DNA of 64,000 bases, taken from assembly GCA_035512435.1 (NCBI GenBank), contig DATKDX010000047.1, forward strand, positions 4,674 through 68,673, given 5' to 3'. Under the pieces are notes generated by a model, which saw only the letters and a list, made by a program, of their open reading frames with translations, was not told where the DNA came from and did not search any database. Positions 1 through 34,670 of the stretch are shown here, one piece after another. Made by a program: the position numbers and the translations under genes. This stretch comes from Dehalococcoidia bacterium. GTDB lineage: Bacteria; Chloroflexota; Dehalococcoidia; SM23-28-2; RBG-16-64-32. Each line of letters begins with the position of its first letter. Within the stretch, counting starts at the first letter, position 1.

Positions 1-381
1 TGCGACGCCGACATCGACGGTGACTTCGCTGTCAACACGGCGGACAACTGCCCGCTGGTCCACAATCCCACGCAGGCGGACTGGAACAACGACGGCATCG
101 GTGACCACTGCCAGGACAGCGACGTCGACAACTACCTCGACTGGCTCGAGATCTATTTCGGCACCGATCCGGCCGCTGACTGCGGAGTGGACGCCTGGCC
201 ACCGGACATCACGAACGACGGCACGGTCAACACCACAGACGTCCTCTCCCTAAGGGGGCCGTTCTTGACAAGTGCCGGCGAGCCGGGATTTACGCAGCGC
301 GTTGACTTCTACCCCGATGGAACGATCAACACAACCGATGTGCTGAACCTGCGGCCCGTCTTTGGGCTCAGCTGCAGTTAG
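1..381 (+). CDS. 3' end of a 5'-truncated gene for a TSP3-repeat/dockerin-like surface protein
   Basis: Frame 1 is open from position 1 to the stop at 379-381. The translation carries Asp-rich Ca-binding loops (DADIDGDFAVNTADNCP, NNDGIGDHCQD) typical of thrombospondin type-3 repeats, then two dockerin-like segments (WPPDITNDGTVNTTDVLSLRGPF; DFYPDGTINTTDVLNLRPVFG). The same C-terminal module ends the 519..5126 protein. Confidence 0.6.
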   Translation, partial: CDADIDGDFAVNTADNCPLVHNPTQADWNNDGIGDHCQDSDVDNYLDWLEIYFGTDPAADCGVDAWPPDITNDGTVNTTDVLSLRGPFLTSAGEPGFTQRVDFYPDGTINTTDVLNLRPVFGLSCS

Positions 382-518
382 GTGAAATTCCGCCATTGGG
401 AACGTGATAGATAGCGCGGCACGGAATTCGCATATCTATTGGAGGAAATCTACTTGTAATACGCCGTAAGGAGTGTTAAATACCTGTCAAGCTGGAATCG
501 TATTTCTGGGGGTGCGCC

Positions 519-3500
519 ATGCGTCAACTATCCCGCCCTGTTCTCGCCGCAACAATTGCGGCCGCCTTGGCAGTTATTGCCATCGTCGTTTCCTTTCAGG
601 AAGGTCCGTCAGCCGAGGCTGCCGGATCCGCCGATGTCAAAGTGGTCAGCCTCACATTCGGTACGCCGAACGGCACCAATCAGTGCGTCAACCCTGCACC
701 AACGGAAATTCCCGTCAACACAAACGTCACAGTCTGCACGCGGCTCACGTTCCACAACAACGGCCCAACCAGCCCGGTGGACGTCAGCATTGACCGGAGC
801 GCTCAGTTCGTGCCGCAGGGGGGGCAACCTTCCAACGAGTGCACAATCAGCCCAACGAGCGGCCTGCTGACGTTCACGAATGTCTCATCTTCCGTGACAT
901 TAACCCGTGACGAAAATTACACCGTCAACTGCACGAATCCGTCATTCCACAAGTTCCGCGTCACCAACACTCTTAGCGTGGGACCGGCCGGCAACACCGA
1001 TCCGGATACCAGTAACAACAGTGCCACCACAGACCTGGACGTTGGGGTGACCGCTGAAGCGGACTTCTCCATCGTCTCCCAGATTCTTTACGACGCCGAC
1101 TGCACTAGCCCCGCGCCAACAACCATCCTGGTCAACACTGACGCCGTCTTTTGCCTGGTGAAGACCGTTCACAACGCGGGCCCCTTCGGCCCCACCGCGG
1201 CCGACATCTTCTTCCGCAGTGATGCCCCTGCAGACTGTACACTCGTGCCCTTTGTCGATTCCAACGGCGCGCAGTTGCAGGTATCTGTGAATTTCACGCT
1301 GTCGGAGCTCTTTACCCTTAACTGCTCCCAGCCTTCCAGCCACACCTTCATGGTAGAGAACTTCCTGGAACCGGTCGACGTTCACGTCACCGATCCTGAC
1401 GGCGTCTCTTACATGGCCACTCAGCACACCGTGGCCGTCCTGGGCCAAGCGGACGTCAAGATTCAGAGCCAGAACATCTCAGCTCCGCTCTCCGCTCAGC
1501 CCGGCCAACCATTCACGGTTACCGTGAACAAGACGGTGCACAACAACGGGCCTGTGGGGCCAGTCACGGTAAGCATAGCGGCCAGTGTTTCTGCTCCCCC
1601 AGACTGCTCCGTCACACCTGATCCCGGCAACCCAACCTCTGCTAACCTTCCAGTCTCGGCCGCAACGCCGCTTACCGAAAACTTTGAGGTGACCTGCACC
1701 GATCCGTCCAACCACCAGATCACCATCGAAAACTGCATCGCCTTCAGCGTCCTCCACCTTACCGATCCCAACACCGCCAACAACTGCAGCCAGTCATCAG
1801 TCAATGTGCCGATTTCCGTGGACGCTGACCTCAAGATCCAGTCACAGAGCGTCAACGCGCCCAGTCAGGCCGACGCTGGAGTGGCATTTGACATCACCAT
1901 CCAGAAAACGGTCCACAACAACGGACCCGCGCCCTCGGCGCCGGCGACGATCACATCGAACGTCTCCGGACCGGCCGACTGCACGATTACACCCGATCCG
2001 GGCAACCCCGCCGCCGTAACGCTCAGTCCCTCTGTCGCCACGAACTTGAGCGAATCCTTCAGCGTAGTCTGCACCGGCCCATCGTTCCACGAGTTCACCG
2101 TGGAGAACTGTATCGACCCCTCAAACGTGCACGTGGTCGATAACATTCCCGGCAACAACTGCCAGATAGATAGCGTGACGGTCGCCATCGTCGGCGAATC
2201 AGACGTCAAGATCACATTCCAGGAAGTAATTGACCCACCTCCCGCGCCAATTAACACCGTCGCGATCGATATGGATCCGAACAATACGCCGGCTAACACG
2301 GCTACTTCCTACGGCACGGTTGAGAACTGCGGAGAAGTCACAACGGGGAACACAACCATAATCGACGTGATCGTCGACGAGGTGCCTCCCTACAATGGGA
2401 CAAACGGCGGCATTGTTGGCGTCGAGTTCACGCTCAACTATGACCCAACGAAGGTCCACGTAGTAGCCAAGGACTACTTCTTCCTCCTGGCCGCCAACGG
2501 AATTACACCGATCGATTTCTCTGACGACACCAGCGATCCATTCCCGGATGATGACGGCACATACACACTCGCGGTCGTCGACTTCGGTGCGGGAGCACCA
2601 GAAAGCGGAGTTGGCGTTCTTGGCCGCGTTACCCTGCAGGGAGTGGGTTCCGGTACGAGCCCGCTCACTCTTTCAGGCATCGCATTGACTGATGGCGGAT
2701 TCGAGCCGTACTCAATCACGAACACAGTGAATGCAGAAGTCCGCGTGGATGGCGCCTGTCCGCTGCCACCTACACCCACGCCCTCACCGACCCCATCCCC
2801 AAGCCCATCACCGACGCCCTCGCCCGGCGTGCCGCCCGACCTGATCTTCGACGTGGGCGAGGACTTCGGCATCAAGCTAATCAAGACGATGCACAACAAC
2901 GGTCCGGCCGGGCCGACCAACGTCTCGATAAACACTTCGTTCTCAGCCCCTCCAGACTGCGAACTGCTGGACATGCTTACGAACCCCACCAGCGCGACCC
3001 TGCCCGTATCATCCTCCGTGCAGGTGACGGAGAACTTCCTGGCTAGCTGCGATTCGCCATCGGAGCACACCTTCTCCTTCACGAACTGCATTGAAGTGAC
3101 CGACGAGCACGTTACCGACCCGAACCCGGGCAACAACTGCTGGACCAGCAACCTGGTCGTCGTCATCCTGTCGCAGACGGACCTCAAGATCACATCACAG
3201 ACGCTGGACGCGCCGCCTGAGGCAGAAACCGGGACTCCCTTCGGCCTGACCTTGACCAAGACCGTGCATAACAACGGCCCCTCAACGCCGGGCAACGCGA
3301 ACATCGTGACGAACGTGTCAGCGCCGCCCGACTGCACCGTGACTCCGGATCCTGGCAATCCTGCTTCGGTGACACTGGACGCCTCTGTCAGCCAGCACGT
3401 AACGGAGGTATTCAGCGTCACCTGCGATGAGCCCTCGTTCCACGACTTCCAGATCGAGAACTGCCTCCAGGTAGCCGACATCCACCAGAGTGATCCGGAC

Positions 3501-5126
3501 ACCGAGAACAACTGCGAGACGTCTCAGGCAACCGTCTCCGCCACCGCCGAGGCTGACCTCAAGATCACGGCGCAACAGTTTTACGCGGCTGACTGCACTT
3601 CGCCGGCACCGGATATGCTGCCGCCGAACACTGACCTGACGCTGTGCGCCAGCACGACGCTTCACAACAACGGACCGTTCGGACCGATGGACGCCAACGT
3701 CCAGTACGTGGTGACACCGCCTCCGGGCTGTACCAGCAACCCTGACAACGTCACCGTGCCGGCCAACAACATGCAGGTCTCCACGGCACAGGTACAGAAC
3801 CAGTCGTTCACGCTGAACTGCACAACGGGCGGCATGCACAACTTCCAGTTCACGACGACGCTTGCGCCGCAGAATATCCACATCGACGATCCTCAGGCCA
3901 ATAACAACATCGAAACGGAAGTGGTCGAACTGCGCGGTGATGAGGCGGATCCGAAGATCACGGCGGTTGTCGTCGACTGCCCGGACGATGCGATGACAAA
4001 CACGACGTTCGACTGCGACGTGCACGTGACGGTCCACAACAACGGGCCTACGACTCCCGTCCCGGTGGACGTGGAAACGGAACTGGTGGGCGCATTCGAC
4101 TGTACCCTGACTCCGCCGGGATCGCAGACAGAGTCTCGCCTCCTGGTGGCCAGCACGAGCCAGGTGATCACGTACAAATGGTCAGTCACGTGCACGGAGT
4201 ACAGCTTCCACCAGTTCATGGCCAACTCCGAACTGGAGATGTCCGATCCCGGCATCCTGGAGCTCGACCCCAACAACAACACAGGCACCGGCCAGGACAC
4301 GACGACAGTGTCGGCGCCCGTAGACGTGAAGGTGACAGCGGTGACCGGCACTGCGCCCGCCAATTCGCCCGCCAACACACCGTTCAACGTGCAGGTGGAT
4401 GTCTCCGTCCACAACAACGGTCCAGCCTCGCCGATCAAAGTGGAAGGCGGCGCCGGTATCGCGGTGCCCAGCGACTGCACGGTCGCGCCCGGGCCGTACC
4501 AGCTGTTCAACATCATGGTTGTGCCGGCCAGCGCCACGCAGGTCGTGACGAAGGACTTCACGGTGAGTTGCTCCCAGAACGGCGACCACCAGATCGTGGT
4601 CTGCGGACGCGCTGGGCCGAACACACTGCACGTTCAGGAGCAGAGTCAGCACAGCAACTTCAAAAACACGGCCATCATCGTGAACATTGGCGGCAACTCG
4701 CCGACATTCGTGCCGACCACCTCTTGCTCGATCCTGGGCGACCCACCTGAGGTCTGCGGCAACGGAATCGACGACGATGGTGATACTGAAATCGACGAAG
4801 AGCCGGACACCGACCTTGACGGCCTAAGCGACTGCGTTGACCTGGACGACGACAACGACGGGTACCCCGACGTACTAGAGGAATACATCGGGACTGACCC
4901 GCTAAACCCCTGTGCGCGCGCTCCGTTCGATTCCGCATGGCCTCCTGACTTCGACAACAACCAGCGGATCAACACGACCGATGTCCTGGCACTCAAGCCC
5001 ATCTTCGGAACCAAGGCAGGCGATGCCAACTTCGGCCAACGCGGCGATCTTGATGGCAACGGCAAGATCAATACCACAGACGTGCTCTCGTTGAAGCCCG
5101 TGTTTGGAATCACCTGCACCAACTGA
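519..5126 (+). CDS. Giant secreted surface protein (1535 aa) with signal peptide, ten ~120-aa DUF11-like repeats each holding a near-invariant HNNGP motif (one copy reads HNAGP), one internal cohesin-like domain, a PT-rich linker, TSP3 repeats and a C-terminal dockerin-like repeat pair
   Basis: N-terminal signal peptide MRQLSRPVLAATIAAALAVIAIVV. Repeats recur with the pattern ...DVKI(T/Q)SQ... TVHNNGP ... PPDCTVTPDPGNP ... F(S/T)V(T/S)C..PS.H.F..EN. Residues ~590-760 (VEFTLNYDP...DGTYTLAVVDFGAGAPESGVGVLGRVTLQGVGSGTSPLTLSGI) match the cohesin-like domains of the downstream small proteins. PTPTPSPTPSPSPSPTPSPG linker. C-terminus CGNGIDDDGDTEIDEEPDTDLDGLSDCVDLDDDNDGYPD then ...RINTTDVLALKPIFG...DLDGNGKINTTDVLSLKPVFG, a dockerin-type duplicated Ca-loop/helix segment. 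A hairpin terminator follows the gene. Confidence 0.8.
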   Translation: MRQLSRPVLAATIAAALAVIAIVVSFQEGPSAEAAGSADVKVVSLTFGTPNGTNQCVNPAPTEIPVNTNVTVCTRLTFHNNGPTSPVDVSIDRSAQFVPQGGQPSNECTISPTSGLLTFTNVSSSVTLTRDENYTVNCTNPSFHKFRVTNTLSVGPAGNTDPDTSNNSATTDLDVGVTAEADFSIVSQILYDADCTSPAPTTILVNTDAVFCLVKTVHNAGPFGPTAADIFFRSDAPADCTLVPFVDSNGAQLQVSVNFTLSELFTLNCSQPSSHTFMVENFLEPVDVHVTDPDGVSYMATQHTVAVLGQADVKIQSQNISAPLSAQPGQPFTVTVNKTVHNNGPVGPVTVSIAASVSAPPDCSVTPDPGNPTSANLPVSAATPLTENFEVTCTDPSNHQITIENCIAFSVLHLTDPNTANNCSQSSVNVPISVDADLKIQSQSVNAPSQADAGVAFDITIQKTVHNNGPAPSAPATITSNVSGPADCTITPDPGNPAAVTLSPSVATNLSESFSVVCTGPSFHEFTVENCIDPSNVHVVDNIPGNNCQIDSVTVAIVGESDVKITFQEVIDPPPAPINTVAIDMDPNNTPANTATSYGTVENCGEVTTGNTTIIDVIVDEVPPYNGTNGGIVGVEFTLNYDPTKVHVVAKDYFFLLAANGITPIDFSDDTSDPFPDDDGTYTLAVVDFGAGAPESGVGVLGRVTLQGVGSGTSPLTLSGIALTDGGFEPYSITNTVNAEVRVDGACPLPPTPTPSPTPSPSPSPTPSPGVPPDLIFDVGEDFGIKLIKTMHNNGPAGPTNVSINTSFSAPPDCELLDMLTNPTSATLPVSSSVQVTENFLASCDSPSEHTFSFTNCIEVTDEHVTDPNPGNNCWTSNLVVVILSQTDLKITSQTLDAPPEAETGTPFGLTLTKTVHNNGPSTPGNANIVTNVSAPPDCTVTPDPGNPASVTLDASVSQHVTEVFSVTCDEPSFHDFQIENCLQVADIHQSDPDTENNCETSQATVSATAEADLKITAQQFYAADCTSPAPDMLPPNTDLTLCASTTLHNNGPFGPMDANVQYVVTPPPGCTSNPDNVTVPANNMQVSTAQVQNQSFTLNCTTGGMHNFQFTTTLAPQNIHIDDPQANNNIETEVVELRGDEADPKITAVVVDCPDDAMTNTTFDCDVHVTVHNNGPTTPVPVDVETELVGAFDCTLTPPGSQTESRLLVASTSQVITYKWSVTCTEYSFHQFMANSELEMSDPGILELDPNNNTGTGQDTTTVSAPVDVKVTAVTGTAPANSPANTPFNVQVDVSVHNNGPASPIKVEGGAGIAVPSDCTVAPGPYQLFNIMVVPASATQVVTKDFTVSCSQNGDHQIVVCGRAGPNTLHVQEQSQHSNFKNTAIIVNIGGNSPTFVPTTSCSILGDPPEVCGNGIDDDGDTEIDEEPDTDLDGLSDCVDLDDDNDGYPDVLEEYIGTDPLNPCARAPFDSAWPPDFDNNQRINTTDVLALKPIFGTKAGDANFGQRGDLDGNGKINTTDVLSLKPVFGITCTN

Positions 5127-5147
5127 GCAACACCAGCGTCTGACGAT

Positions 5148-5189
5148 TCAGGCTCCGGAAGCTAAAGCCTCCGGAGCCTGAGTTTTTGT
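5148..5189 (+). terminator. Rho-independent terminator after the giant surface protein gene
   Basis: Perfect 12-bp stem tcaggctccgga / tccggagcctga (5148-5159 and 5170-5181) followed by gtttttgt. Confidence 0.6.
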
Positions 5190-5534
5190 CCCGAATCGAG
5201 CCAAACTCAGGGCGGTTAAAAACCGGTTAAAGCGCGTCTACTACTGATGTTCTTCGTTGAATCGCCAACTTTTACAGTGATATAAAGGATTTACTTACAT
5301 ATTCTGCAATCTGGCAAGGGGAGGGTTCGGGTGCGTAGCAGGCAGGGTCACTGCATTTCCCAACGAGGCTGTCGATCGGGTTAGACGGCACGCCAGAGTC
5401 TGCTTCCGGCAGTTTCCGCCGCGCCCGGTCAGGTACTTCGTTGAGCCAACCTCGCGGCAACGCTCCCCTCACATTCTTGCCGGGCATCGCCCTGCTTGCC
5501 GCCGGCCTGAGGTCCTCCTTCTATCCTCGCTATC

Positions 5535-6515
5535 ATGGGACGACTTGGAACGATTAACCCGATGACAGCCCGCGTGATTACCACATGGGTCCTCTGGAGC
5601 GCCGCCGCGACGCTCCTCGTTCTGCACGTCGCCTCTAACGCAGGCGCCCAGTCTGGCACATCGCTGGCCATTGATGTCGGCTCTGCCTCCGGTTGCGATG
5701 AAATCGGCGAAGGCGACGAGATTGAGGTGCTGCTGCGCATCGAAAACGTCATCGAGCTAGGGGCATGGGAAGCAACCATCGTGTACGACCGCGACATTCT
5801 AGAAATCGTCTCGCAGGACAACCGTCAGTTTATCGTCGAAGCTCCGGGCAGCAACGTAGTCGACGCATCAGAGCCGCTCCCCGACTACAATGGGCGCCAT
5901 CTCCTCAGCATCGGTGATGCCAGCGCCAGCGCCGAAAGCGGCGATGGCGTCCTCTCCATCGTCGTATTCAGGGCCGTGGACGAGGGCACCACCCTAATTA
6001 GCATTCCTCAGTACGACATCAATGGGGACGGCCGTACTGACGAAGGCGCGCAGATCTCCCGATATGGCGGCGGCTTCATCGGCGACGTGAATGGCGACGG
6101 GTTCTTCGATGGGCCTGTGAGTGGCGGCATCGTCGCAGTCGATGCTGACTGCAACGATGCGGAGACGCCCGAGCCAACCGACCCGCCAACCTCGGGACCG
6201 GGACAGAGCGACAGCGGGGACGGCGGCGCAAACACATCCAGTCCCAGCGGCGCCGGCCCCGGTGTATCCCAGCCGCCGGAGAGCGGACCACCTCCGAGCG
6301 ACGGCCAGACGCCCCGCACACCCACGCCCATCGACGGAACGCCCCAGACGCCCTCTGACGGCGACCCAAATCGCAGCCCTGAGAGCGACGATCGCACCAA
6401 CGATGGAAACGGCGACGGGGACTCATTCCCGCTCTGGCTGATCGCCGTCTTGCTGACCGGCGGACTGGCCGGCGGCGCAGCAGTCGTCGTTTATGCGGTC
6501 AGCCGTAGGCCCTAA
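5535..6515 (+). CDS. Secreted cohesin-like domain protein with C-terminal TM anchor (type-I membrane topology)
   Basis: Signal peptide (…TWVLWSAAATLLVLHVASNAGAQS). Cohesin-like beta-sandwich motifs (IEVLLRIENVIELGAWEATIVYDRDILEIVS ... ESGDGVLSIVVFRAVDEGTTLISIP). Pro/Ser/Gly/Asp-rich linker. C-terminal FPLWLIAVLLTGGLAGGAAVVVYAVSRRP: hydrophobic helix plus basic tail, no LPXTG. Confidence 0.65.
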   Translation: MGRLGTINPMTARVITTWVLWSAAATLLVLHVASNAGAQSGTSLAIDVGSASGCDEIGEGDEIEVLLRIENVIELGAWEATIVYDRDILEIVSQDNRQFIVEAPGSNVVDASEPLPDYNGRHLLSIGDASASAESGDGVLSIVVFRAVDEGTTLISIPQYDINGDGRTDEGAQISRYGGGFIGDVNGDGFFDGPVSGGIVAVDADCNDAETPEPTDPPTSGPGQSDSGDGGANTSSPSGAGPGVSQPPESGPPPSDGQTPRTPTPIDGTPQTPSDGDPNRSPESDDRTNDGNGDGDSFPLWLIAVLLTGGLAGGAAVVVYAVSRRP

Positions 6516-6672
6516 ACGGTGAGAGAACGGTTAGGAAACTGTAACTGAGGTACTCATGCAAGATTGGGGCGTTCATGTTGCGCCGTACGGGACCTTTGTG
6601 ATACTTATTACCAAAGCTATTTAGCAGAGAAAACTCGCATAACCGCATCCCCAAGGAGGAGGGCATCCAATC

Positions 6673-7680
6673 ATGAGAATTGCCGGAATTCATGTGCTTC
6701 CCGGCTTGACGGTCACTGCCATTGCCGTGGCAGTAGCAATGGCGGTCATCCTCGCGATCCCGCAGGCATCGAACGCCGCCACGGGCACCCACGACGGCTC
6801 AGCTGGCTCCGTTGACCAGTTCGTCGTGGACACTAACATCACAGGGAACACGCTGGGAACCGTGTCAGACACGGGCCAACTCCAGGGCCCGGTCAACGAA
6901 TGCGTCGAGATATCTAGCGGTGGAACCGTGGAAGTCGACATCGTCATCGACGAAGTCAACCCGGCGGACGGATTTACGGGTGGCGAGACTCAGATCTCGT
7001 ACGACCCTGCCATCCTTCAAGTCATCGGCTATACTCTTCCAACCGGCGCCATCAACTTCACGCCAGATACGTTGCCCGACACTGATGGAACGTTTACGCC
7101 GGCATGGATCGCCCTCGCCGCCCCCGCAGACGGTGAAATCGTCCTCGCCCGGGTGGAATTCCAAGCAGTCGGCACGGGTGTCAGCCAAATATCGCTGAGC
7201 AACTCTGTTGCGAATGACAACATCGGGCCAGCGCCCATACCCATTAACTCTGAGGTGGGCGGAAGGATCGCCGTTGGTACCAGCTGCACCGCGCAGGCGA
7301 CGACGCCGCCCGTTTCGACGACGCCTCCGGTCGAGACCACGCCTCCGGTCGAGACCACACCTCCAGTCCAGACGACACCTCCAGCCCAGACGACACCTCC
7401 GGTAACGCCTACGCCTACGCCTACGCCTACTCCTACTCCTACTCCTACTCCTACGCCGACCCCAACACCGACGGCAACAGCCGGCGTGACGGGCACGCCG
7501 ACCGGCACGGGCGGAACGGGCACCCCGATTGGGACGGCAACGCCCGGTAGCCTGCCGCGCACGGGTGGCGAGGAAGGCGCTGACGGCACCAGCATCATGC
7601 TTGTGTTGGCCGTCATTGGCATCGCGGCCGTGAGCGGCGGTGCAGTCGCCCTGAAGGCCGCCGCCCGCAGGGAACAATAG
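6673..7680 (+). CDS. Secreted cohesin-like domain protein with PT-repeat linker and C-terminal LPXTG sortase sorting signal
   Basis: RBS aaggagga 12 nt upstream of the ATG. Signal peptide. Cohesin-like core (VEISSGGTVEVDIVIDEVNPADGFTGGETQISYDPAILQVIGY ... DGTFTPAWIALAAPADGEIVLARVEFQAVGTGVSQISLSN). (TTPPVxTTPPV)n then (TP)n linker. C-terminal LPRTGG, hydrophobic stretch, then KAAARREQ: a classical LPXTG signal. Confidence 0.7.
   Translation: MRIAGIHVLPGLTVTAIAVAVAMAVILAIPQASNAATGTHDGSAGSVDQFVVDTNITGNTLGTVSDTGQLQGPVNECVEISSGGTVEVDIVIDEVNPADGFTGGETQISYDPAILQVIGYTLPTGAINFTPDTLPDTDGTFTPAWIALAAPADGEIVLARVEFQAVGTGVSQISLSNSVANDNIGPAPIPINSEVGGRIAVGTSCTAQATTPPVSTTPPVETTPPVETTPPVQTTPPAQTTPPVTPTPTPTPTPTPTPTPTPTPTPTATAGVTGTPTGTGGTGTPIGTATPGSLPRTGGEEGADGTSIMLVLAVIGIAAVSGGAVALKAAARREQ
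7312..7473 (+). repeat. In-frame tandem nucleotide repeats (21-bp and 6-bp units) encoding the TTPPV/TP linker of the LPXTG cohesin-like protein
   Basis: acgcctccggtcgagacc x2, then acgcct/actcct x ~10 (7405-7473). Confidence 0.7.
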
Positions 7681-7704
7681 GCCGACGATCGAGCCAAGCG
7701 ATAC

Positions 7705-8712
7705 GTGATTAGTGGGGCGGCGGTGCGAAGTGCCCCGCCGCCCCACCACCCCATCCTTATGATTCCTCGCTCACAGACCTATACCGCACCAATCGCGCTC
7801 GCTGCAGCGGTGCTCTCCATGATGATTCTTGCAGGCGAAGTTCGGGCACAGGGAGTAGTGGCCGAGAACGTTGATCTCATCGCTATCGACACCGACACAT
7901 CCGGCAACGACCCCACCACCGTTGGCGCGGTCGATGTCTGCTCGAGGATCGAGGTTGGTGATGAATACGAGGTCGACGTAGTTGTCCAGGGGATCCCGGA
8001 ATTGGATGAAGGGGGTGAGCTTGTATCCTTCGAGTTCGTCCTCCACTATGATGGGCGTTATGTCGAGATAATCGATGCTGATGTCACAGGTCAACTGCTT
8101 GGGGAAGCGCCCGGTAGCAACGTGATTGACTTCACCAACGAAACTCCAGACGACGACGGTCAGTTCACGGTCGCGGCTGTAGACTTCGGCGAGGGAGCAG
8201 ACGAATCGGGCGATGGTGTCCTTGCCCGTCTCACACTCCGCGGCATCGGCCAGGGCACAAGCGACCTCGCACTTACCGGCATCTTGCTACACGATTCCTC
8301 CCCACCTGAGCAGATCGACCACTATGAGTTCGATACCGTCCAGAACGGCCTGATCTCAGTCGGGGTGGACTGCGCGCCCAACGTCACCCCGCCGCCGTAT
8401 GTCTCCGCAACACCAACCGCTACGCAAGAACCAGGACAGGACGGTGGCACCACCCAGCCGCCTGGAGAGTCTCCGGATGATAGCACTCCCGTTGACGGCG
8501 AGACTCCGCCCAGCGACAGTCCCGGCCCGGGCGATGATTCAGCGAGCCCGAGCAACGGCGCAGACGGAGACAACAGCCAGAGCGACGACGATGACGATGA
8601 CGATGGCTCAGGTACGATAATCATCATCGCAGCAGTCGTCGTGGCCATCTTGCTGGCGGCGGCAGGTGCTGGCTACCTCGTGCTCCGCCGGCGCGGAGGA
8701 GATGCTTTATGA
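7705..8712 (+). CDS. Secreted cohesin-like domain protein with acidic linker and C-terminal TM anchor plus RRR tail
   Basis: Cohesin-like core (YEVDVVVQGIPELDEGGELVSFEFVLHYDGRYVEIIDADV ... DGQFTVAAVDFGEGADESGDGVLARLTLRGIGQGTSDLALTGI). D/S/G-rich linker ending DDDDDDDGSG. C-terminal TIIIIAAVVVAILLAAAGAGYLVLRRRGGDAL. The true start may be the internal Met of MIPRSQ (~7759). Stop overlaps the next gene's ATG (ATGA). Confidence 0.65.
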   Translation: MISGAAVRSAPPPHHPILMIPRSQTYTAPIALAAAVLSMMILAGEVRAQGVVAENVDLIAIDTDTSGNDPTTVGAVDVCSRIEVGDEYEVDVVVQGIPELDEGGELVSFEFVLHYDGRYVEIIDADVTGQLLGEAPGSNVIDFTNETPDDDGQFTVAAVDFGEGADESGDGVLARLTLRGIGQGTSDLALTGILLHDSSPPEQIDHYEFDTVQNGLISVGVDCAPNVTPPPYVSATPTATQEPGQDGGTTQPPGESPDDSTPVDGETPPSDSPGPGDDSASPSNGADGDNSQSDDDDDDDGSGTIIIIAAVVVAILLAAAGAGYLVLRRRGGDAL

Positions 8713-9476
8713 TCCGCGGCTTCGTCAGCACGCTAGTAGTCGCCGTGGCGGCACTCCTCGCGGCTCTCATGGCCTCCAGCCCCGTCATGGCCGACGTCGG
8801 TGAGGTAGGCATAGACGCCGACCCCTCCGGTAATGAGGCAGGAAGCCTGGGCGACGTACAGAACTGCATCGGCGTAAGCGTGGGCGATTCGTTTGATATC
8901 GACGTGTACGTCAAAGACATCGACGACTTGATCGCCTTTCGCGCCTTCGTGCAATACGACCCCGCCGTGCTCGAGGTGAGCGACCGCGACACAGAGTTCT
9001 TCCTGACGACGGCCGACGAAACCGGCGTGCTGGACCAGTCTGACACGGTGCCTGACAGCGATGGGCAGTACGAGCTGCAGGCCGTCAACGCCAGCGATTC
9101 GTCGGCCGGCGCCTCCGGTGACGGCGTGCTGGGACGCGTGACGTTCACTGCCGTTGGCACAGGCTTCAGCACGATTGACCTGACCCCGGTGGACCTGAAC
9201 ACCGACGGAGTGATCGATAGGGGCATCTATTTCGCCGACTTTGAAGGCGACAACCCCGGCGACGAAGACGGCGATACGTATTACGACGGCACCTTGCGCG
9301 GGGCCGTTGTCGCGGCCGGCGAGAGCTGCGACGATGCGCCGGACGCACCGGGAAGCCAGGAAGACGATAACGGCATCAGCCTCTGGATCATCATCGCAGC
9401 GGTGGTTGCCGGCATCGTCGTTGTAGCAGGAGCCGGTGCGTTCCTTGTGCAGAGGCGGAAGGCTCCGGCAAGTTAA
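8709..9476 (+). CDS. Secreted cohesin-like domain protein with C-terminal TM anchor plus RRK tail
   Basis: Signal peptide MIRGFVSTLVVAVAALLAALMASSPVMA. Cohesin-like core (SFDIDVYVKDIDDLIAFRAFVQYDPAVLEV ... DGQYELQAVNASDSSAGASGDGVLGRVTFTAVGTGFSTIDLT). C-terminal SLWIIIAAVVAGIVVVAGAGAFLVQRRKAPAS. Translationally coupled to the upstream paralog. Confidence 0.65.
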   Translation: MIRGFVSTLVVAVAALLAALMASSPVMADVGEVGIDADPSGNEAGSLGDVQNCIGVSVGDSFDIDVYVKDIDDLIAFRAFVQYDPAVLEVSDRDTEFFLTTADETGVLDQSDTVPDSDGQYELQAVNASDSSAGASGDGVLGRVTFTAVGTGFSTIDLTPVDLNTDGVIDRGIYFADFEGDNPGDEDGDTYYDGTLRGAVVAAGESCDDAPDAPGSQEDDNGISLWIIIAAVVAGIVVVAGAGAFLVQRRKAPAS

Positions 9477-9682
9477 AGTGACTCATCGGTCACTAATTTC
9501 CCGACTGCTGCGAGAACATTCTCGTGATACCTACCTAATCTGCGTGAAGTATGAGAGTTTGCTACAGTTTTGCTACTGCGATTTTCGGAAACATTGCCTT
9601 GACACCCTATTAACCCGCCAGTATCATCGCGCATGAGCTATAGGTAGCCCCTATTCAAATGTAGAACGAGGAGAGAGCACCC

Positions 9683-11323
<1,641 letters not shown>

Positions 11324-11608: not shown

Positions 11609-13045
11609 TCACCCCCGGGCGCGGCTGGGAGCCGCCTCGCGCGGCAAGACGAGCGTGAAGGTGGAGCCGGAGCCGGGCTCGCTCTCGACCATGATGCGGC
11701 CGCCGTGGGCGCGGGCTATCCAGTCGCTGATGGAGAGGCCCAGGCCGGCACCCGTGGTGCGCCTCTGGCCGTTCTCCGCGCGGTACATGCGCTCAAAGAT
11801 GTGTGGCAGTTGCACGGCGCTGATGCCATGCCCCTGGTCCGCCACCGCCACGCGCGCCTCACGCTCATCGCCGCTGACATAGACCGTCACGGTCGTGCCG
11901 GCGGGCGAATACTTGAGGGCATTGTCCAGCAGGTTGAGGACGACCTGCTTCAGCAGGTCGTAGTCGCCCGTGACGGTGACCTGGTCTTCCTCGGCGATCT
12001 TGAGGCTGACCTCGGGGCGCAGGGCGCGGGCCTGGCGGCATGCCTCCAGCACCAGCACGTCCAGTTCGACCGGCGCCTTCGCCACTTCGCGGCCGGCGTC
12101 GGCGTGGGCGCTGTAGAGCAGGTTCGACGTCAGGCGGATCATGCGCTGCACCTCGCGTGACATGCGCTGCAGTTGGTCGCGCGACTCGGCGTCCAGGTTC
12201 TCGTCGAGGAGCAGGACGTCGATGTTGCCGCGCAGCGCGGCCAGAGGCGTCCGCAACTCGTGGGACATGTCCATCATGAAGTCACGCTGCGCGCCGAACG
12301 CCTTCTCAAGCCGGTCAAGCATGGCGTCGAATGTATCGGAGAGCCGCTGCACTTCTGCCGGTGCGTCCTCGGCGTGGATACGCCTGCCAAGGTCCTCCGC
12401 CTCGATCTCCCGCGCCACGCGGATGACGCGCTCAAGTGGCTGCAAAGCGCTGCGGGCAATGACATACCCCGCCAACAGCGACAGGACCAGAGCGATCGCG
12501 CCAACCACGACGAGAGCAGTCTGGAAGTCGCTGACGGTGTCGTTAATATACTGCGCATCACCCACGATCTGGACTGCGCCCCAGACTACGCCGTTCGAGC
12601 CGACGAGCCGCTCCGCATAGACGCGCTGGTCTCCGCCGTCCTCGCTCGCCAGCGTCGTATTTACCGGTTCGCCCGTCAGCACCTGCGCAAGTTCGGACTC
12701 CGTGAGAGGATACGGAGTCGGGTCGCGCGGCGTACCCTGCGCGTCTCCCACCGTCACGGCCACCACATCGCCGTTAGCCTCGCGGATGATCACCAGTGCT
12801 GATCCGCTGGACTGACCGCCGTACAGGTCAGCGATTCGCTGGAAAGAAGAAGCGCTGGCGTCACCACCTTCCAGCACCAGCGCCTGCGCGGCGATCGCCG
12901 CCCCGTCCTCCGCAAGTGATGCGTCGAGGTCGTCGCGCAGCGTGTCGTCGATGACGATGCGGGCGACGACGAGAATGGCGAAGAGGGTCATCACCATCGC
13001 GGCGGCGATGATGATGGCGAGCCGCCAGCGGATGCTGAGTTGCAT
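11609..13045 (-). CDS. Sensor histidine kinase (two TM segments, HAMP, HisKA, HATPase_c)
   Basis: H-box MSHELRTPLAALRGN, N-box LLDNALKYSP, G-boxes DQGHGI and GAGLGLSISDWIARAHGGRIMVESEPGSGSTFTLVLP. N-terminal TM MQLSIRWRLAIIIAAAMVMTLFAILVV. Immediately downstream of the response regulator on the same strand. Confidence 0.9.
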   Translation of the reverse strand: MQLSIRWRLAIIIAAAMVMTLFAILVVARIVIDDTLRDDLDASLAEDGAAIAAQALVLEGGDASASSFQRIADLYGGQSSGSALVIIREANGDVVAVTVGDAQGTPRDPTPYPLTESELAQVLTGEPVNTTLASEDGGDQRVYAERLVGSNGVVWGAVQIVGDAQYINDTVSDFQTALVVVGAIALVLSLLAGYVIARSALQPLERVIRVAREIEAEDLGRRIHAEDAPAEVQRLSDTFDAMLDRLEKAFGAQRDFMMDMSHELRTPLAALRGNIDVLLLDENLDAESRDQLQRMSREVQRMIRLTSNLLYSAHADAGREVAKAPVELDVLVLEACRQARALRPEVSLKIAEEDQVTVTGDYDLLKQVVLNLLDNALKYSPAGTTVTVYVSGDEREARVAVADQGHGISAVQLPHIFERMYRAENGQRRTTGAGLGLSISDWIARAHGGRIMVESEPGSGSTFTLVLPREAAPSRARG

Positions 13046-13047
13046 GG

Positions 13048-13713
13048 CTAGGCCTTGAGCATGTAACCCACGCTGCGCACGGCGTGGATCAGGTCAGTTT
13101 CTCCCGGCGCGTTCAACTTGCGCCGCAGGTAACGCACGTACACCTTGATAGCGTCCGATTCAGCCTCGAAGTCGTATCCCCAGACCTTTTCGAAGATAGC
13201 GGCCTTCTCCATGACTCTGCCGGCGTTACGGGCCAAGAACTCCAGTAGCTCGTATTCGCGGTTGGTCAGCTCAATCTGGCGGCCGGCGCGCTCCACCTCG
13301 CGGCTGGCGGGGCGGATCGTCAGGTCGCCGACCTTGATCTGCTCCTCGCGCGGGGCTTTGCGGCGCAGCGCGGCGCGGATGCGGGCCAGCAGCTCATCGA
13401 AGGCGAATGGCTTCGTGATGTAGTCATCGGCGCCGGCTTCCAGCCCCTCTACTTTCTTGTTCACGGAGTCGAGCGCAGTGAGCATGATCACCGGCGCGTC
13501 ACCGGCGGCGCGGATGCGCTGGCAAACCTGGATGCCGTCGATGTCCGGTAGCATCAGGTCCAACACCACCAGGTCCGGCTCCTCTTCGCGGAAGTGGTCC
13601 AGGCCCTCTTCGCCGCCGTAAGCGACGTCGACGTCATAGCCCTTCAGCTTGAGGCCGCGGGAGATGAAGTTGGCGATGTCTTCTTCGTCTTCGATTACGA
13701 GGATTCTTGTCAT
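13048..13713 (-). CDS. OmpR-family response regulator (receiver + winged-helix DNA-binding domain)
   Basis: MTRILVIEDEEDI...LVVLDLMLPDIDG receiver motifs. C-terminal LTNREYELLEFLARNAGRVMEKAAIFEKVWGYDFEAESDAIKVYVRYLRRKL is OmpR/PhoB-type. Confidence 0.9.
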   Translation of the reverse strand: MTRILVIEDEEDIANFISRGLKLKGYDVDVAYGGEEGLDHFREEEPDLVVLDLMLPDIDGIQVCQRIRAAGDAPVIMLTALDSVNKKVEGLEAGADDYITKPFAFDELLARIRAALRRKAPREEQIKVGDLTIRPASREVERAGRQIELTNREYELLEFLARNAGRVMEKAAIFEKVWGYDFEAESDAIKVYVRYLRRKLNAPGETDLIHAVRSVGYMLKA

Positions 13714-13767: not shown

Positions 13768-14583
13768 TCAGCCCGTCGCCCCCGCTTCCGCGCGGTCGGC
13801 CATTACCTGTGCCCAGAACAGCACCTGGCCCTCCCCTGAGTTACGCGGCGCGTTCGCCAGGTACTGAGCATCGGCACGCAGGAAGGCGCGCACGTTGCCC
13901 ACGCGGAAGACCACCTGGTCCACGATCTGCAGGTTCTGCCCGTCCGAAGTGACGCCGGAGACCCGCACCCAGTACACCTCTTCTCCCACGTTATCAGGCG
14001 TGATCTCGGTTACCTCGACTTCCGTCAGCTCAGGGAAGGAGCCTGCCCAGTCAGCTTCCTCCGCCAGGTCGACGTCGTGGCTGTAGGAGAGCGAGCAGCC
14101 CTGCGCGTCCTCGTAGAGGCTGGCGTCCGACTGCACGCCGAGGAACGTCCGTTGCCCCGTGGCCTGCGAGTCCGGCAGGAAAGCGACGCTCAACCCCAGC
14201 TGGCGCCCCCACGCCTCGAACTGCGCGAGCGTCTCCGCCGGGTCGCGGGTGCCCTGCGCCGACTCCTCGTTCGTGCTGAACGAGCGGCTCGCCTCGATTA
14301 AGCTGAGGCCAGACGTGTCATCCTCGGTCAGCACCATCGAGCCGAGCAGCGCCTGTTGCTCCTCACGGCCCCCGCCTCCTCCGTCGTCATCATCATCGCC
14401 GGATGCAAAGGCAAGGTAGGAGATCACAGCAACGACGGCGATAACGGCGATAAGGCCCGCAAGAAGCTGCGGGAGCCTGCCAGATTTACTTAGATTCAGT
14501 GGTCGTTCTCCAGAATTTGGCGTGACTGGTATGTAATCGTCTTGACACTTAGATGGAAATACTAATATAAGGGGAGCAACCAA
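13768..14583 (-). CDS. Hypothetical membrane-anchored protein (single N-terminal TM, poly-Asp/poly-Gly stretch, extracytoplasmic domain)
   Basis: Long ORF transcribed toward the two-component genes. TM LLAGLIAVIAVVAVISYLAF followed by DDDDDGGGGG. No recognisable catalytic motifs. Start codon uncertain. Confidence 0.5.
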   Translation of the reverse strand: MVAPLILVFPSKCQDDYIPVTPNSGERPLNLSKSGRLPQLLAGLIAVIAVVAVISYLAFASGDDDDDGGGGGREEQQALLGSMVLTEDDTSGLSLIEASRSFSTNEESAQGTRDPAETLAQFEAWGRQLGLSVAFLPDSQATGQRTFLGVQSDASLYEDAQGCSLSYSHDVDLAEEADWAGSFPELTEVEVTEITPDNVGEEVYWVRVSGVTSDGQNLQIVDQVVFRVGNVRAFLRADAQYLANAPRNSGEGQVLFWAQVMADRAEAGATG

Positions 14584-14666
14584 AAAGAGCCACCGGCCGT
14601 CGATTTGCCCGGTGGTGGAGCACGCCTCGAATGGCCTCTGCGCAGACGCTTTGAAGGAGACAACAA

Positions 14667-16133
14667 TTGACTCTCACCCGTAACCCGCTACGCGCCCTGG
14701 TGGCTGCCACCCTTGCGCTGATCGCCGTCGTGGTCATCTCGTCGCCCAGCGACACTTACGCCGGCACCTTCGACCCACAACTCACCGTCTGCCTTGACGA
14801 CCTGTCAACCGTGGACCCCAACCCAGGCACGGACGGTGACCCAGAAGAGTGCGACGGCGACAACAGCCCCGAGGTTGCATCCAGTTTCGTGTCCAGCTTC
14901 GGGATCGGCGATGAGGATGTGAACTTCGCGGCCGTGGTCTCCTACATCCCGCCTGACTGGGGAATCGTCGGGGGCAACGACATTCCGATCGGAGCGGACG
15001 TCGGATACCTCGACGCCGCCGCCACCCTGGGTCTTATCGGCTCCGCCTGTAACCAGGTGCTTCCTGTCCACTTTGACTTCAAGAACTCCAGCATTGATCT
15101 CAGCGATACAGTCATCTTCACCGATGACGAAGAGGATGATGACGCCACGGCCGAGTTCGCCGAGACTGACGAGGCGACCGGTGAGTACATGTCTGTTGTC
15201 AAATACCCGGAGTTTCTCCTGCGCGTGCTTGACGACGAGGATGGCAATCCTCTACAGCCCCTGCGCCGCTCCTCCGGCGTCGCCATCGTCGCAGGCATCC
15301 CGGTCCTCCTGCAGTTCCTGATCTTCCCGCCGGGGACGGTCATCAATGAGGATCTGCCGTCGGAGCCTGAGAAGGGCTGGCCGTCAGTGACTGTGCTGCA
15401 GAACGCCGGCGACCCGGACATAGTCCCGCAGCCCGGCCCAATCACAGACTTCTGCTCGCCCCTCTCCACTACAAATGTCACGCTGGGCGAGACACCGGAA
15501 GGCGACCCACTCTTCATCACCCCAAAGGCCGGCACGCACACGTTCACTACGGTCTCCTTCGGCCAGCGGGACGCCGACAATGACGGCTACGAAAACAGCC
15601 TTGACACTTGCCCCTTCGACGTGAATGCGGGCAACCCCAAGGTTACGCTGGAGGGCGACCTGGACGGCGATGGACTGGACGCCGCCTGCGACCCGAACGA
15701 CGACCCGGCGACGGGTGGCACGAACTCCGACGAGGACGGCGACGGTTACCTCAACCGCCAGGACAACTGCCCGCTGGTGGCGAACGGCCAACAGGACGAG
15801 AGCAACCAGGCCGACGCAGACCTGGACCAGATCGGCGACGCCTGTGACCCCGAGCCGGACGTTGCCGACGGCGATCTCTCCTACTCCGAACTCACGGTCG
15901 ACATTGAGATCGGCGACGCGGCCGGCCCCGGCGGCGCGCCCGACTGCGTGACGGCCGTAGGTGTAGCCTGCCTGCAGGCCGGCGAGACGCAAGACAATGG
16001 CAACGGAAACGGTGACGATGGCGGCTCCGACACGGGCCTGATCATCGGCATCGTGGTCGGCGTCATCGCCGCCGTGGTTATCCTCGGTGGTGGCGCGGCG
16101 CTGCTCATGCGCCGCCGCAACGGCGCCGCTTAA
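14667..16133 (+). CDS. Secreted TSP3-repeat surface protein with C-terminal TM anchor (RRR tail); paralog of 9683..11323
   Basis: Same architecture: CLDDLSTVDPNP...ECDGDNSP N-domain. SVTVLQNAGDPDIVPQPGPITDFCSPLSTT block shared with 9683 (VTVLQNGGDPNIAPAPSAITDFCSPLATS). TSP3-like DADNDGYENSLDTCPFD, DEDGDGYLNRQDNCPLVAN, DLDQIGDACDP. Acidic insert (DDEEDDDATAEF). C-terminal GLIIGIVVGVIAAVVILGGGAALLMRRRNGAA. Terminator follows. Confidence 0.75.
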   Translation: MTLTRNPLRALVAATLALIAVVVISSPSDTYAGTFDPQLTVCLDDLSTVDPNPGTDGDPEECDGDNSPEVASSFVSSFGIGDEDVNFAAVVSYIPPDWGIVGGNDIPIGADVGYLDAAATLGLIGSACNQVLPVHFDFKNSSIDLSDTVIFTDDEEDDDATAEFAETDEATGEYMSVVKYPEFLLRVLDDEDGNPLQPLRRSSGVAIVAGIPVLLQFLIFPPGTVINEDLPSEPEKGWPSVTVLQNAGDPDIVPQPGPITDFCSPLSTTNVTLGETPEGDPLFITPKAGTHTFTTVSFGQRDADNDGYENSLDTCPFDVNAGNPKVTLEGDLDGDGLDAACDPNDDPATGGTNSDEDGDGYLNRQDNCPLVANGQQDESNQADADLDQIGDACDPEPDVADGDLSYSELTVDIEIGDAAGPGGAPDCVTAVGVACLQAGETQDNGNGNGDDGGSDTGLIIGIVVGVIAAVVILGGGAALLMRRRNGAA

Positions 16134-30879: not shown

Positions 30880-32172
30880 GTGACCATGCGCGAAACCGCC
30901 CCCGCGACCGGCATCTACTACGGCTGGATCGTGCTCATAGCCTCCGTCGTTGCCATGGCCGTCGGCAGCGGGATATCGTTCTGGTCGTTCGGCCTCTATG
31001 TCGATCCGCTCGAATCGGACTTTGGCTGGTCCCGCGCCGAAGTCTCCGCCGGCATCTCCGTCTCCCTCGGCATTGGCGCGCTTTCCGGACCACTAATCGG
31101 CCGCTGGATCGATTCCTCCGGCCCGCGCGTCGTCATCATCGCCGGCGCCTTCGCCAGCTCGGCCACATTCCTTCTCCTCGCCACCACCACCGAGCTCTGG
31201 CAGTGGTTCGTCTATCTCTCGATCAACACCGTCGCCCGCCAGATGGTTTTCTTCCTCCCCTTCCAGGCCCTCGTCTCACGCTGGTTTGAGCGCAAACGCG
31301 GGCTCGCCGTCGGCATCCTCGGCTCGGGATTTTCGTTTGGCGGCCTCGCCATCGTCCCGCTGATGGCCTTCGTCATCGACCGGCTGGACTGGGACGGCTC
31401 GTTCGTCTTCGCTGCCGCCCTTACCCTCGCCCTCTTCCTGCCAATGGGCCTGCTCGTCCTCCGAAACGACCCCGCTGATGTCGGCGCCAACATGGACGGT
31501 GACACCGTCGCCGATGGCGAGACCTACACGCCGGCGCCGCTCACCGGCCTCACCCTGCGGCAGACCCTCCGGACCCCGCTCTTCTGGCTCCTCGCCGCGG
31601 CCATGACCCTCTTCATCTTCGGAATCGTCGGCTGGATCGTGCACCAGGTCCCGTTTTACGAGTCAGTTGGCGTCTCCCGCGGGCTCGCCGCCGGCCTCGT
31701 CTCCATAGCCGCCGGTGGCGGCGTCATCATGCGCCTTACCTTCGGCGTCATCGCCGACCGCGTTCCCCGCATCGAGGTCGGTGCCATGGGCCTTCTCGCG
31801 TTCCTGGTCGCGTCGATGGCCGTACTGCTCGTGGATTCCGGCATCGTCGGCATCTCAATCTTCGTCGTGCTCTGGGTCATCGGCAGCGGTGGCGGCCCTC
31901 TCCTTGAACCCCTCCTGCTCGGGCGCGCCTTCGGCCTCAAACACTTCGCCACCATCCTCGCCACGATGATGCTCATCGACGCTCTCGGCGTCGTCACCGC
32001 TCCCACCATCGCCGGCCTCATCTACGACGAAACCGGCTCCTATGACCTCGTCCTCGTGATGTTCGGCAGCTCCTTCGCCGCCGCCTTAGCCCTCTTCTAC
32101 CTCGCCTCCCGTCTCCCCCACCCCATGCAGGCACTGCCGCTAACCGAACAGTTCCCCGAACCGCGAGCCTAA
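30880..32172 (+). CDS. MFS-type transporter (12 predicted TM helices)
   Basis: 430 aa, highly hydrophobic, two 6-TM halves, GxLxDRxGxR-like loop (GPLIGRWIDSSGPR). Confidence 0.7.
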   Translation: MTMRETAPATGIYYGWIVLIASVVAMAVGSGISFWSFGLYVDPLESDFGWSRAEVSAGISVSLGIGALSGPLIGRWIDSSGPRVVIIAGAFASSATFLLLATTTELWQWFVYLSINTVARQMVFFLPFQALVSRWFERKRGLAVGILGSGFSFGGLAIVPLMAFVIDRLDWDGSFVFAAALTLALFLPMGLLVLRNDPADVGANMDGDTVADGETYTPAPLTGLTLRQTLRTPLFWLLAAAMTLFIFGIVGWIVHQVPFYESVGVSRGLAAGLVSIAAGGGVIMRLTFGVIADRVPRIEVGAMGLLAFLVASMAVLLVDSGIVGISIFVVLWVIGSGGGPLLEPLLLGRAFGLKHFATILATMMLIDALGVVTAPTIAGLIYDETGSYDLVLVMFGSSFAAALALFYLASRLPHPMQALPLTEQFPEPRA

Positions 32173-34667: not shown

Positions 34668-34670
34668 CTA

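Follow-up and report, generated by a model that had tools for sequence, protein, structure and literature searches.

The first 9,476 nucleotides of a 64,000-nucleotide stretch of DNA from a Dehalococcoidia bacterium of the phylum Chloroflexota (GenBank assembly GCA_035512435.1, contig DATKDX010000047.1, positions 4,674 to 68,673; the whole stretch is referred to here as the window) encode a group of secreted proteins that carry cohesin and dockerin modules. Six open reading frames (ORFs), all on the same (+) strand, fill positions 1..9476, with intergenic gaps of 78–408 nucleotides. The coordinates given for them in an initial annotation, made from the sequence alone, agree with the ORF listing. 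The first (1..381) comprises the last 126 codons of an upstream giant protein ending in a dockerin. The second (519..5126; HUF54309.1) encodes a 1535-residue giant with a signal peptide, nine CARDB-like repeats, a nested cohesin, and a C-terminus made up of TSP3 and dockerin sequences. Four small cohesin proteins with C-terminal anchors follow: one of 326 residues (5535..6515; HUF54310.1), one of 335 residues (6673..7680), one encoded by 7705..8712 (HUF54312.1), for which GenBank places the start at 7759, giving 317 residues, and one of 255 residues (8709..9476; HUF54313.1), the start of which overlaps the preceding stop by 4 nucleotides. Elsewhere the window carries a cell-wall and division cluster encoding an FtsI-type transpeptidase, several Mur ligases and FtsA, and the host is therefore taken to make peptidoglycan.

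Cohesin, dockerin and repeat modules

The cohesins of the four small proteins (5625..6164, 6811..7299, 7870..8385 and 8796..9341) and the one lodged inside the giant (2250..2771, from the hidden Markov model envelope and the sequence) align as paralogues over ~170 residues, sharing two invariant Cys and the motifs PDxDG and ESGDGVL(A/G)R. Against the Pfam Cohesin family (PF00963; gathering cut-off 24.1 bits) the small proteins score 27.1, 23.1, 19.4 and 32.9 bits in gene order, and the giant's internal cohesin scores 16.9 bits when taken alone. A profile built from all five domains matches about 30 solved cohesins, the best being 3kcp_A (3e-7); this profile was needed, single-sequence searches of the PDB with one of the cohesin proteins and with the giant's cohesin having returned nothing significant. 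One of the five domains, that of 7705..8712, was modelled with AlphaFold from an alignment of 50 homologues (pLDDT 93.5, pTM 0.90). In a Foldseek comparison of this model with the PDB the top 50 matches were all cohesin modules, among them 5lxv_C (4e-10) and, third-best, 2xdh (2.7e-8). The five cohesin-like domains proposed in the initial annotation are thus upheld by their paralogy, by the profile matches to solved cohesins and by a model that matches only cohesins.

Pairwise identity among the five cohesins is 26–40%, a divergence that, judged by cellulosomal cohesins, would point to differing specificities. Three of them have orthologues of 40–53% identity at a locus in another Dehalococcoidia genome (LejiaF_64_43, locus L007, described below); for the cohesins of 7705..8712 and 8709..9476 the nearest relative found is 39–40% identical and is not an L007 orthologue. 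An insertion of ~40 residues lies near the C-terminal end of the domain in 5535..6515 (~6010..6130) and 8709..9476 (~9190..9320). It holds motifs resembling Ca2+ loops, for example DINGDGRTD...DVNGDGFFDG, with two DxNxDG loops in 5535..6515, and is found in most homologues and absent from the other three window cohesins.

On a reading of the sequences, all four small proteins start with a hydrophobic stretch that resembles a signal peptide and terminates at an AxA-like site, and each has a stretch rich in Pro/Thr/Ser/Asp/Gly followed by a C-terminal hydrophobic segment and a basic tail. The details differ from protein to protein. That of 5535..6515 has a Pro/Ser/Asp-rich stalk leading to a membrane segment and RRP, and that of 6673..7680 a PT-rich stalk, the sequence LPRTG, a 10-residue spacer, a hydrophobic segment and a basic tail. 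The 7705..8712 product combines a signal peptide with an acidic stalk, a membrane segment and RRR, and in 8709..9476 the cohesin is followed by a membrane segment and RRK. Four consecutive small secreted cohesin proteins with a C-terminal anchor had been predicted, and signal-like N-termini with hydrophobic and basic tails are indeed present in all four. No sortase was found among the window ORFs scanned with Pfam, which make up part of the window's ORFs.

A semi-conserved motif, [F/L/S]-P/L-x-W or P-W, opens the membrane segment in 5535..6515, in 8709..9476, in a neighbouring TSP3 surface protein (9683..11323) and in homologues from two related loci (L001 and L007). In two proteins LPRTGG or LPPTGG stands 10–15 residues upstream of the P-W-type motif, which may represent an uncatalogued sorting signal.

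The two dockerin-like C-termini that had been noted, at 1..381 and at the end of 519..5126, both exceed the gathering cut-off of Pfam Dockerin_1 (PF00404; 22.9 bits), with scores of 33.8 bits for the former and 30.9 bits for the latter (residues 1477–1526), and a profile of the modules finds only dockerins among solved structures. It matches 25 of them with both F-hand repeats in register (2y3n_B, 4e-7; 1ohz_B, 8e-7). TSP3 repeats lie immediately upstream of both dockerins (TSP_3, 29.0 bits in 1..381; TSP3_bac in the giant). When aligned with a relative, the extended module, which in the giant occupies 4755..5123, consists of a DDDNDG-type TSP3 repeat, GTDP..C, AWPPD, two F-hand segments and a terminal Cys. 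The giant's Ca2+ loops, DFDNNQRINTTD and DLDGNGKINTTD, both have Asp or Asn at positions 1, 3, 5, 9 and 12. They also share T-T at positions 10–11 and K-P at positions 17–18, so that the putative recognition residues of the two repeats are near-identical. T-T occupies positions 10–11 in all four repeats of the two giant dockerins, which, by analogy with type I dockerins, suggests one shared specificity and a symmetric module of the dual-binding type. The upstream giant ending at 381 was recovered on a further sequence (L017), where it is at least 1655 residues long and consists of TSP3 arrays and divergent CARDB-like repeats; no cohesin is present in its visible part.

The body of the 1535-residue giant is formed by nine repeats of ~125 residues each, with an invariant H-N-x-G-P, two Cys, one Ser and one His. 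According to the repeat alignment, R1–R4 (627..2195), which are CARDB/DUF11-like immunoglobulin (Ig) domains with an HNNGP motif and two conserved Cys, precede the cohesin, and the rest of repeat 5 and R6–R9 (2829..4694) follow it. Single repeats give nearly full-length but sub-threshold Pfam matches, at best 20.5 bits to DUF11 (PF01345; gathering cut-off 24.6 bits) and 18.6 bits to CARDB (PF07705; 22.7 bits), and the whole giant has no Pfam match to either family at E up to 1. A profile of the repeats has no match among PDB sequences, and its hhalign comparison with a bona fide DUF11 domain (L016) covers only the first 43 N-terminal columns, with a probability of 28%. Modelling of repeat R4, with the other eight repeats as alignment, gave an Ig-like sandwich (pLDDT 90.4), for which the best solved fold match is the CARDB domain of PF1109 (3idu, 2.7e-5), followed by macroglobulin-type domains. 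Because the DUF11 and CARDB scores are sub-threshold and the best fold match is to CARDB, the description of the protein as a DUF11-repeat giant is correct at the superfamily level only; the repeats are CARDB/DUF11-like Ig domains that fail the cut-offs of both families.

The cohesin-like domain that had been placed inside the giant is confirmed there, and its position is unusual. It does not lie between repeats but sits within repeat 5 (2193..2850), following strand A (DVKITFQEVIDPPP). After the cohesin comes a Pro/Thr/Ser linker (about 2772..2828), past which repeat 5 resumes at PPDLIFDVGEDFGIKLIKTMHNNGP. The L007 orthologue (6269..10924, residues 580–805) has the same nested arrangement; in another orthologue (locus L011, 2709..7046, residues 560–930) the cohesin occupies a different loop of a CARDB-like repeat.

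Relatives in other genomes

A word-index search recovered 51 relatives of the window cohesins, mostly proteins of 165–320 residues with the same build, and those with a named source come from Dehalococcoidia. In an exhaustive search with the five-domain profile, in which sequences were clustered at 50% identity, 4836 cluster representatives were found at E<=1e-3, 1595 at 1e-10 and 225 at 1e-30. Architectures were counted in 147 representatives, retrieved from the 150 best-scoring ones listed. A single cohesin with a membrane tail is present in 58 of these and two cohesins with a tail in 30, and others have 3–7 cohesins. About ten combine multiple cohesins with a TSP3-type dockerin, and four combine one or more cohesins with a Cys-type dockerin, a module that resembles the C-termini of two beta-helix proteins encoded elsewhere in the window (see below). 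Judged from their sequences, these architectures span the anchoring, primary and adaptor types of scaffoldin.

For the dockerin module, the word-index search gave 130 relatives. Many of these are C-terminal fragments in which the sequence outside the module is Peptidase_C1, P_proprotein, S8, M36 or cupredoxin. Other carriers of the module in relatives are a GDSL lipase, a YHYH protein, a pyrroloquinoline quinone (PQQ) glucose/sorbosone dehydrogenase, an NHL/DUF11 protein, a DUF4185 protein and a papain-family protease with a P-domain. The module also occurs in three records (L009, L013 and L014) labelled as uncultured Gammaproteobacteria.

A scan with the dockerin alignment, limited to one genome per species, gave 12 loci from other genomes. 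The closest counterpart is L007, which encodes an orthologous giant of 1552 residues, composed of four repeats, a cohesin, five repeats and a dockerin, with three cohesin proteins downstream of it, and so reproduces the window locus. The same giant is found at L011, where a dockerin-bearing subtilase gene lies between cohesin genes, and at L003 a dockerin-bearing papain-family protease is encoded beside cohesin genes. On a Chloroflexota chromosome of 2.66 Mb (OY969584.1; loci L006 and L008) the modules are assembled on a larger scale: a 2346-residue protein has 8 tandem cohesins and a C-terminal dockerin, a 2234-residue protein has 6 tandem cohesins and a C-terminal dockerin, and a protein of more than 3200 residues has at least 20 tandem CARDB-like repeats. 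These cohesin-array and repeat proteins are encoded at 3221..10258 and 10612..20253 of L006 and 3575..10276 of L008. They lie upstream of membrane-anchored cohesin proteins and of genes for a nitroreductase, GAPDH and SRP54, which are also found in the window. Synteny, which the initial annotation proposed to look for, is present, the locus recurring in other Chloroflexota metagenome-assembled genomes.

Proposed surface display and its alternatives

The domain identities, folds and architectures described above, together with the conserved gene neighbourhood, indicate that the locus is likely to serve cohesin–dockerin surface display, independent of any cellulosome, in a Dehalococcoidia bacterium that makes peptidoglycan. 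An arrangement of anchoring cohesin proteins and dockerin-borne, non-enzymatic giants had been envisaged from the outset, and it has fared well: the domain assignments hold, the locus is present in other metagenome-assembled genomes, multi-cohesin scaffoldins are encoded by relatives, and the carriers of this dockerin type are secreted proteases, a lipase and oxidoreductases, not cellulases. Because the two modules are repeatedly fused and co-localised across genomes, and because arrays of multiple cohesins end in a dockerin, we infer that cohesin and dockerin interact; this is the main argument for binding. The specificity of that binding, its Ca2+ dependence and its biological role are put forward in the same conditional sense.

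In the proposed mechanism, four proteins exported by the Sec pathway would each have a single type-I-like cohesin mounted on a stalk of low complexity, with the C-terminal membrane segment fixing them to the envelope and one of them also using an LPXTG-like signal. Two secreted giants, assembled from CARDB-like Ig repeats along with Ca2+-binding TSP3 repeats and tipped by a duplicated F-hand dockerin, could then plug in a Ca2+-dependent manner into one or more of the anchored cohesins. Such docking would hang long adhesin- or fibre-like molecules on the cell. As the 1535-residue giant has a cohesin of its own nested in repeat 5, it could serve as an adaptor to bring in another dockerin-bearing protein, or it could link giants into chains. 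The same sockets may also be used by proteins that carry this dockerin type and are encoded in other parts of the genome; in relatives, such proteins are proteases, a lipase and oxidoreductases.

Several observations weigh against this interpretation. Only two of the five cohesins pass the Pfam cut-off individually, the other three falling below it, and in the dockerin of 1..381 the loops DITNDGTVNTTD and DFYPDGTINTTD have Thr and Tyr at Ca2+ ligand position 3. With five divergent cohesins set against two dockerins of the same apparent specificity, most of the sockets are left without an identified partner in the window. At eight of the 12 dockerin-seeded loci there is no significant cohesin within 10 kb. 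Finally, no curated sorting-domain model in NCBIfam matches the C-terminal tails at its cut-off, the only matches, to GVDTG_CTERM and LPxTATN, being sub-threshold.

The scarcity of cohesins near dockerins is also what would be expected if the modules did not pair with one another at all, the cohesin-like domains serving instead as beta-sandwich spacers or ligand-binding domains and the dockerins as Ca2+-stabilised caps or as binders of polysaccharide or another receptor. For many cohesins and dockerins from outside cellulosomes no partner is known to have been demonstrated, which would fit this explanation. It has to contend with the cohesin–dockerin fusions, with the co-localisation of the modules in several genomes and with the multi-cohesin arrays that end in a dockerin, and all of the solved relatives retrieved are interaction modules; an absence of pairing is thus considered improbable. 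A little less improbable, but still unlikely, is that the locus encodes a self-assembling fibre or sheath, in which the cohesin nested in the giant would engage a dockerin, either on a second copy of that giant or on the upstream one, to form head-to-tail chains rooted on a single anchored cohesin and making up a structural or adhesive coat instead of a platform for enzymes. The giant's possession of both modules, an architecture conserved at L007 and L011, speaks for such a coat, as does the fact that both of the window's dockerin giants are non-enzymatic repeat proteins; in a relative, a single protein of more than 3200 residues has at least 20 such repeats. However, the same dockerin type is found on many enzymes in relatives, and enzyme display is therefore at least part of the system. 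In characterised systems, moreover, a protein with both modules usually has a dockerin that does not bind its own cohesin, which also weighs against a fibre.

Surface display of the kind favoured here must also be distinguished from a genuine plant-polysaccharide cellulosome with its glycoside hydrolases encoded outside the window. The window's cohesin and dockerin modules are type-I-like, and one relative bears this dockerin on a DUF4185 protein, a family that we take to include glycoside hydrolases. Against this, the cohesin and dockerin proteins of the window and of the related loci examined yielded neither a glycoside hydrolase nor a carbohydrate-binding module, and the cargo recovered is mainly peptidases (C1, S8 and M36), along with a GDSL lipase, a PQQ dehydrogenase, cupredoxin and NHL proteins. 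The expectation that the cargo would lack glycoside-hydrolase modules was borne out, none being detected in Pfam scans of the window's cohesin and dockerin proteins. Each of the window's cohesin proteins carries a single cohesin and no multi-cohesin scaffoldin is encoded in the window, the proteins with 6–8 cohesins being found in relatives. The locus does not have the defining features of a cellulosome, because neither glycoside-hydrolase cargo nor any carbohydrate-binding module was detected in the window, and it encodes no multi-cohesin scaffoldin. Membership of that class was rejected on the first two counts, and a cellulosome is regarded as very improbable, the least likely of these alternatives.

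The locus has affinities with cellulosomal systems. Its cohesins resemble those of OlpA, OlpC and CipA of Clostridium thermocellum (3ul4, 4dh2, 3kcp and 1ohz) in profile matches and predicted fold. As in cellulosomal anchoring scaffoldins, single cohesins fixed to the surface appear, from sequence and model, to be matched with duplicated F-hand dockerins, and scaffoldins with several cohesins and a terminal dockerin are present in relatives too. Clostridial scaffoldins of the OlpA/OlpC type are anchored by SLH domains. Here, in contrast, the anchor is a C-terminal membrane segment, with LPRTG in one protein, and neither a carbohydrate-binding module nor glycoside-hydrolase cargo was found. Unlike clostridial dockerins, the window dockerin is preceded by TSP3 repeats and a GTDP..C..AWPPD lead-in and has a terminal Cys, and the host belongs to the Chloroflexota rather than to the cellulolytic Firmicutes. 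The giant's repeats share the xADLxV...TVxNxGP start and the Ig-like sandwich of CARDB (PF07705) and DUF11 (PF01345) surface proteins, but have a signature of their own in HNNGP, two invariant Cys and an invariant His.

Cohesins and dockerins outside cellulose degradation have precedents, such as the cohesin of Archaeoglobus fulgidus (2xdh) and the cohesins of the NagJ/GH84 and GH33 enzymes of Clostridium perfringens (2jh2, 2ozn and 2vo8), and the C. perfringens cohesins were also matched in the cohesin searches. Those cases are single modules or enzyme–enzyme pairs, whereas the locus described here comprises several genes, membrane-anchored cohesins and giant Ig-repeat partners, and relatives have scaffoldins of 6–8 cohesins. 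A closer parallel is the 'planctosome' of freshwater Planctomycetes, a hypothetical, genome-inferred and cellulose-independent cohesin–dockerin complex (Andrei et al. 2019, PMC6461901) in which TSP3 repeats occur along with proprotein-convertase P-domains and with peptidases. In relatives of the window, dockerins of the same type as the window's are likewise borne by papain-family proteases with a P-domain and by subtilases. The planctosome differs in being anchored in the outer membrane by a lamin-tail domain rather than by a C-terminal membrane segment, in belonging to a different phylum, and in having neither CARDB-repeat giants nor a nested cohesin (PMC6461901).

The initial annotation had suggested that the locus is an undescribed multi-protein assembly system, a claim that holds only in part. 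In the literature searched for cohesin or dockerin together with Chloroflexi, Chloroflexota, Dehalococcoidia or SAR202, only cellulosome metagenomics or nothing specific was found, and no paper combined cohesin, dockerin and Dehalococcoidia; to that extent no description in Chloroflexota or Dehalococcoidia was encountered. On the other hand, the automatic GenBank names of HUF54309.1, HUF54310.1, HUF54312.1 and HUF54313.1 already call these proteins cohesin or dockerin domain-containing, non-cellulosomal systems are a known category, and the planctosome hypothesis is similar. The locus is real, conserved and widespread in metagenomes, but it is not a new principle.

What many of the non-cellulosomal cohesins and dockerins found in genomes do is a largely unanswered question, for which this locus offers a compact and testable set of five divergent cohesins and four dockerins, two of the TSP3 type and two of the Cys type, in a lineage abundant in both soils and sediments, of which very few representatives have been cultured. 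A cohesin nested in an Ig-like repeat, conserved in three genomes, is moreover an unusual domain arrangement. If the pairs bind, plug-and-socket organisation of proteases, lipases and adhesins at the surface would be general well outside the cellulolytic Firmicutes, and new orthogonal cohesin–dockerin pairs would become available for protein engineering. A bolder reading, slightly less likely than not, is that Chloroflexota of the Dehalococcoidia lineage possess a phylum-scale docking system for the exoproteome that is independent of cellulosomes. Such a system, with a cohesin subfamily specific to it (225 or more clusters at E<=1e-30), two dockerin subtypes, membrane-anchored sockets and scaffoldins of 6–8 cohesins, would organise proteases, lipases, oxidoreductases and giant CARDB-repeat adhesins at the cell surface, with the giant of this locus, through its nested cohesin, as a branching adaptor or a self-polymerising fibre.

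Neighbouring genes and genomic setting

Two proteins on the - strand, encoded some distance from the locus, may also be connected with it. They are CSLREA/beta-helix proteins, one of 832 residues (32169..34667) with a Pfam Beta_helix match, a PT linker and a CSLREA_Nterm score of 21.6 bits (cut-off 25), the other encoded by 34671..36667. Both end in two Cys-containing repeats of the form WGDxxCSGxxDPVDxLxxLRHDAGLS. The second gene is broken up into a pair of ORFs that overlap, 35462..36667 and 34671..35666, by a frameshift or an assembly error.

These repeats had been taken for a dockerin-like pair of a different kind. The C-termini (32169..36667) have no Pfam match even at E 10. The module nevertheless shares 47% identity (E 7e-20) with the C-terminus of P0042, a protein of the window's cohesin family with a C-terminal Cys-type dockerin module, where a precomputed annotation assigns PF00404, and a four-sequence profile of the Cys-type module matches 14 PDB chains, all of them dockerins, albeit weakly (best E 7.7e-4). 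The Cys-type C-termini are thus probably a divergent dockerin subtype. The two beta-helix proteins are a possible second class of cargo, and they too may dock.

Immediately downstream of the last cohesin gene, 9683..11323 (+) encodes a 546-residue TSP3 surface protein (HUF54314.1; Pfam TSP_3, 55.5 bits) with a signal peptide, an N-domain of ~265 residues, TSP3 repeats, a Gly/Ser stalk and a C-terminal membrane anchor. A paralogue with the same architecture and 43% identity is encoded at 14667..16133 (+). No Pfam, PDB or cohesin relationship was found for the N-domain, which is conserved in the family. Homologues of 9683..11323 adjoin cohesin genes at L001 and L002, and the protein possibly belongs to the cohesin–dockerin system. 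The family to which these proteins belong, of ~490–610 residues, comprises the two window members together with L001 10956..12860 and 14133..15782 and L002 1726..2793.

In a scan for promoters and terminators the counts equalled the shuffled expectation; the region's best sigma-70-like match (11/12), at 9599..9627, lies immediately upstream of the 9683 gene. Genes for a histidine kinase (HAMP, HisKA and HATPase_c) and an OmpR-type response regulator, at 11609..13713 (-), separate the two genes for TSP3 membrane proteins, and the pair is a candidate regulator of the surface locus. The G+C content of the locus (1..10000) is 0.59–0.63, somewhat lower than that of most of the remaining window (0.55–0.68, mostly 0.62–0.68). 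Further along the window, at 38138..40503, a gene for an ATP-dependent DNA ligase adjoins a LigD primase-polymerase gene on the opposite strand, an arrangement that looks like a non-homologous end-joining repair pair.

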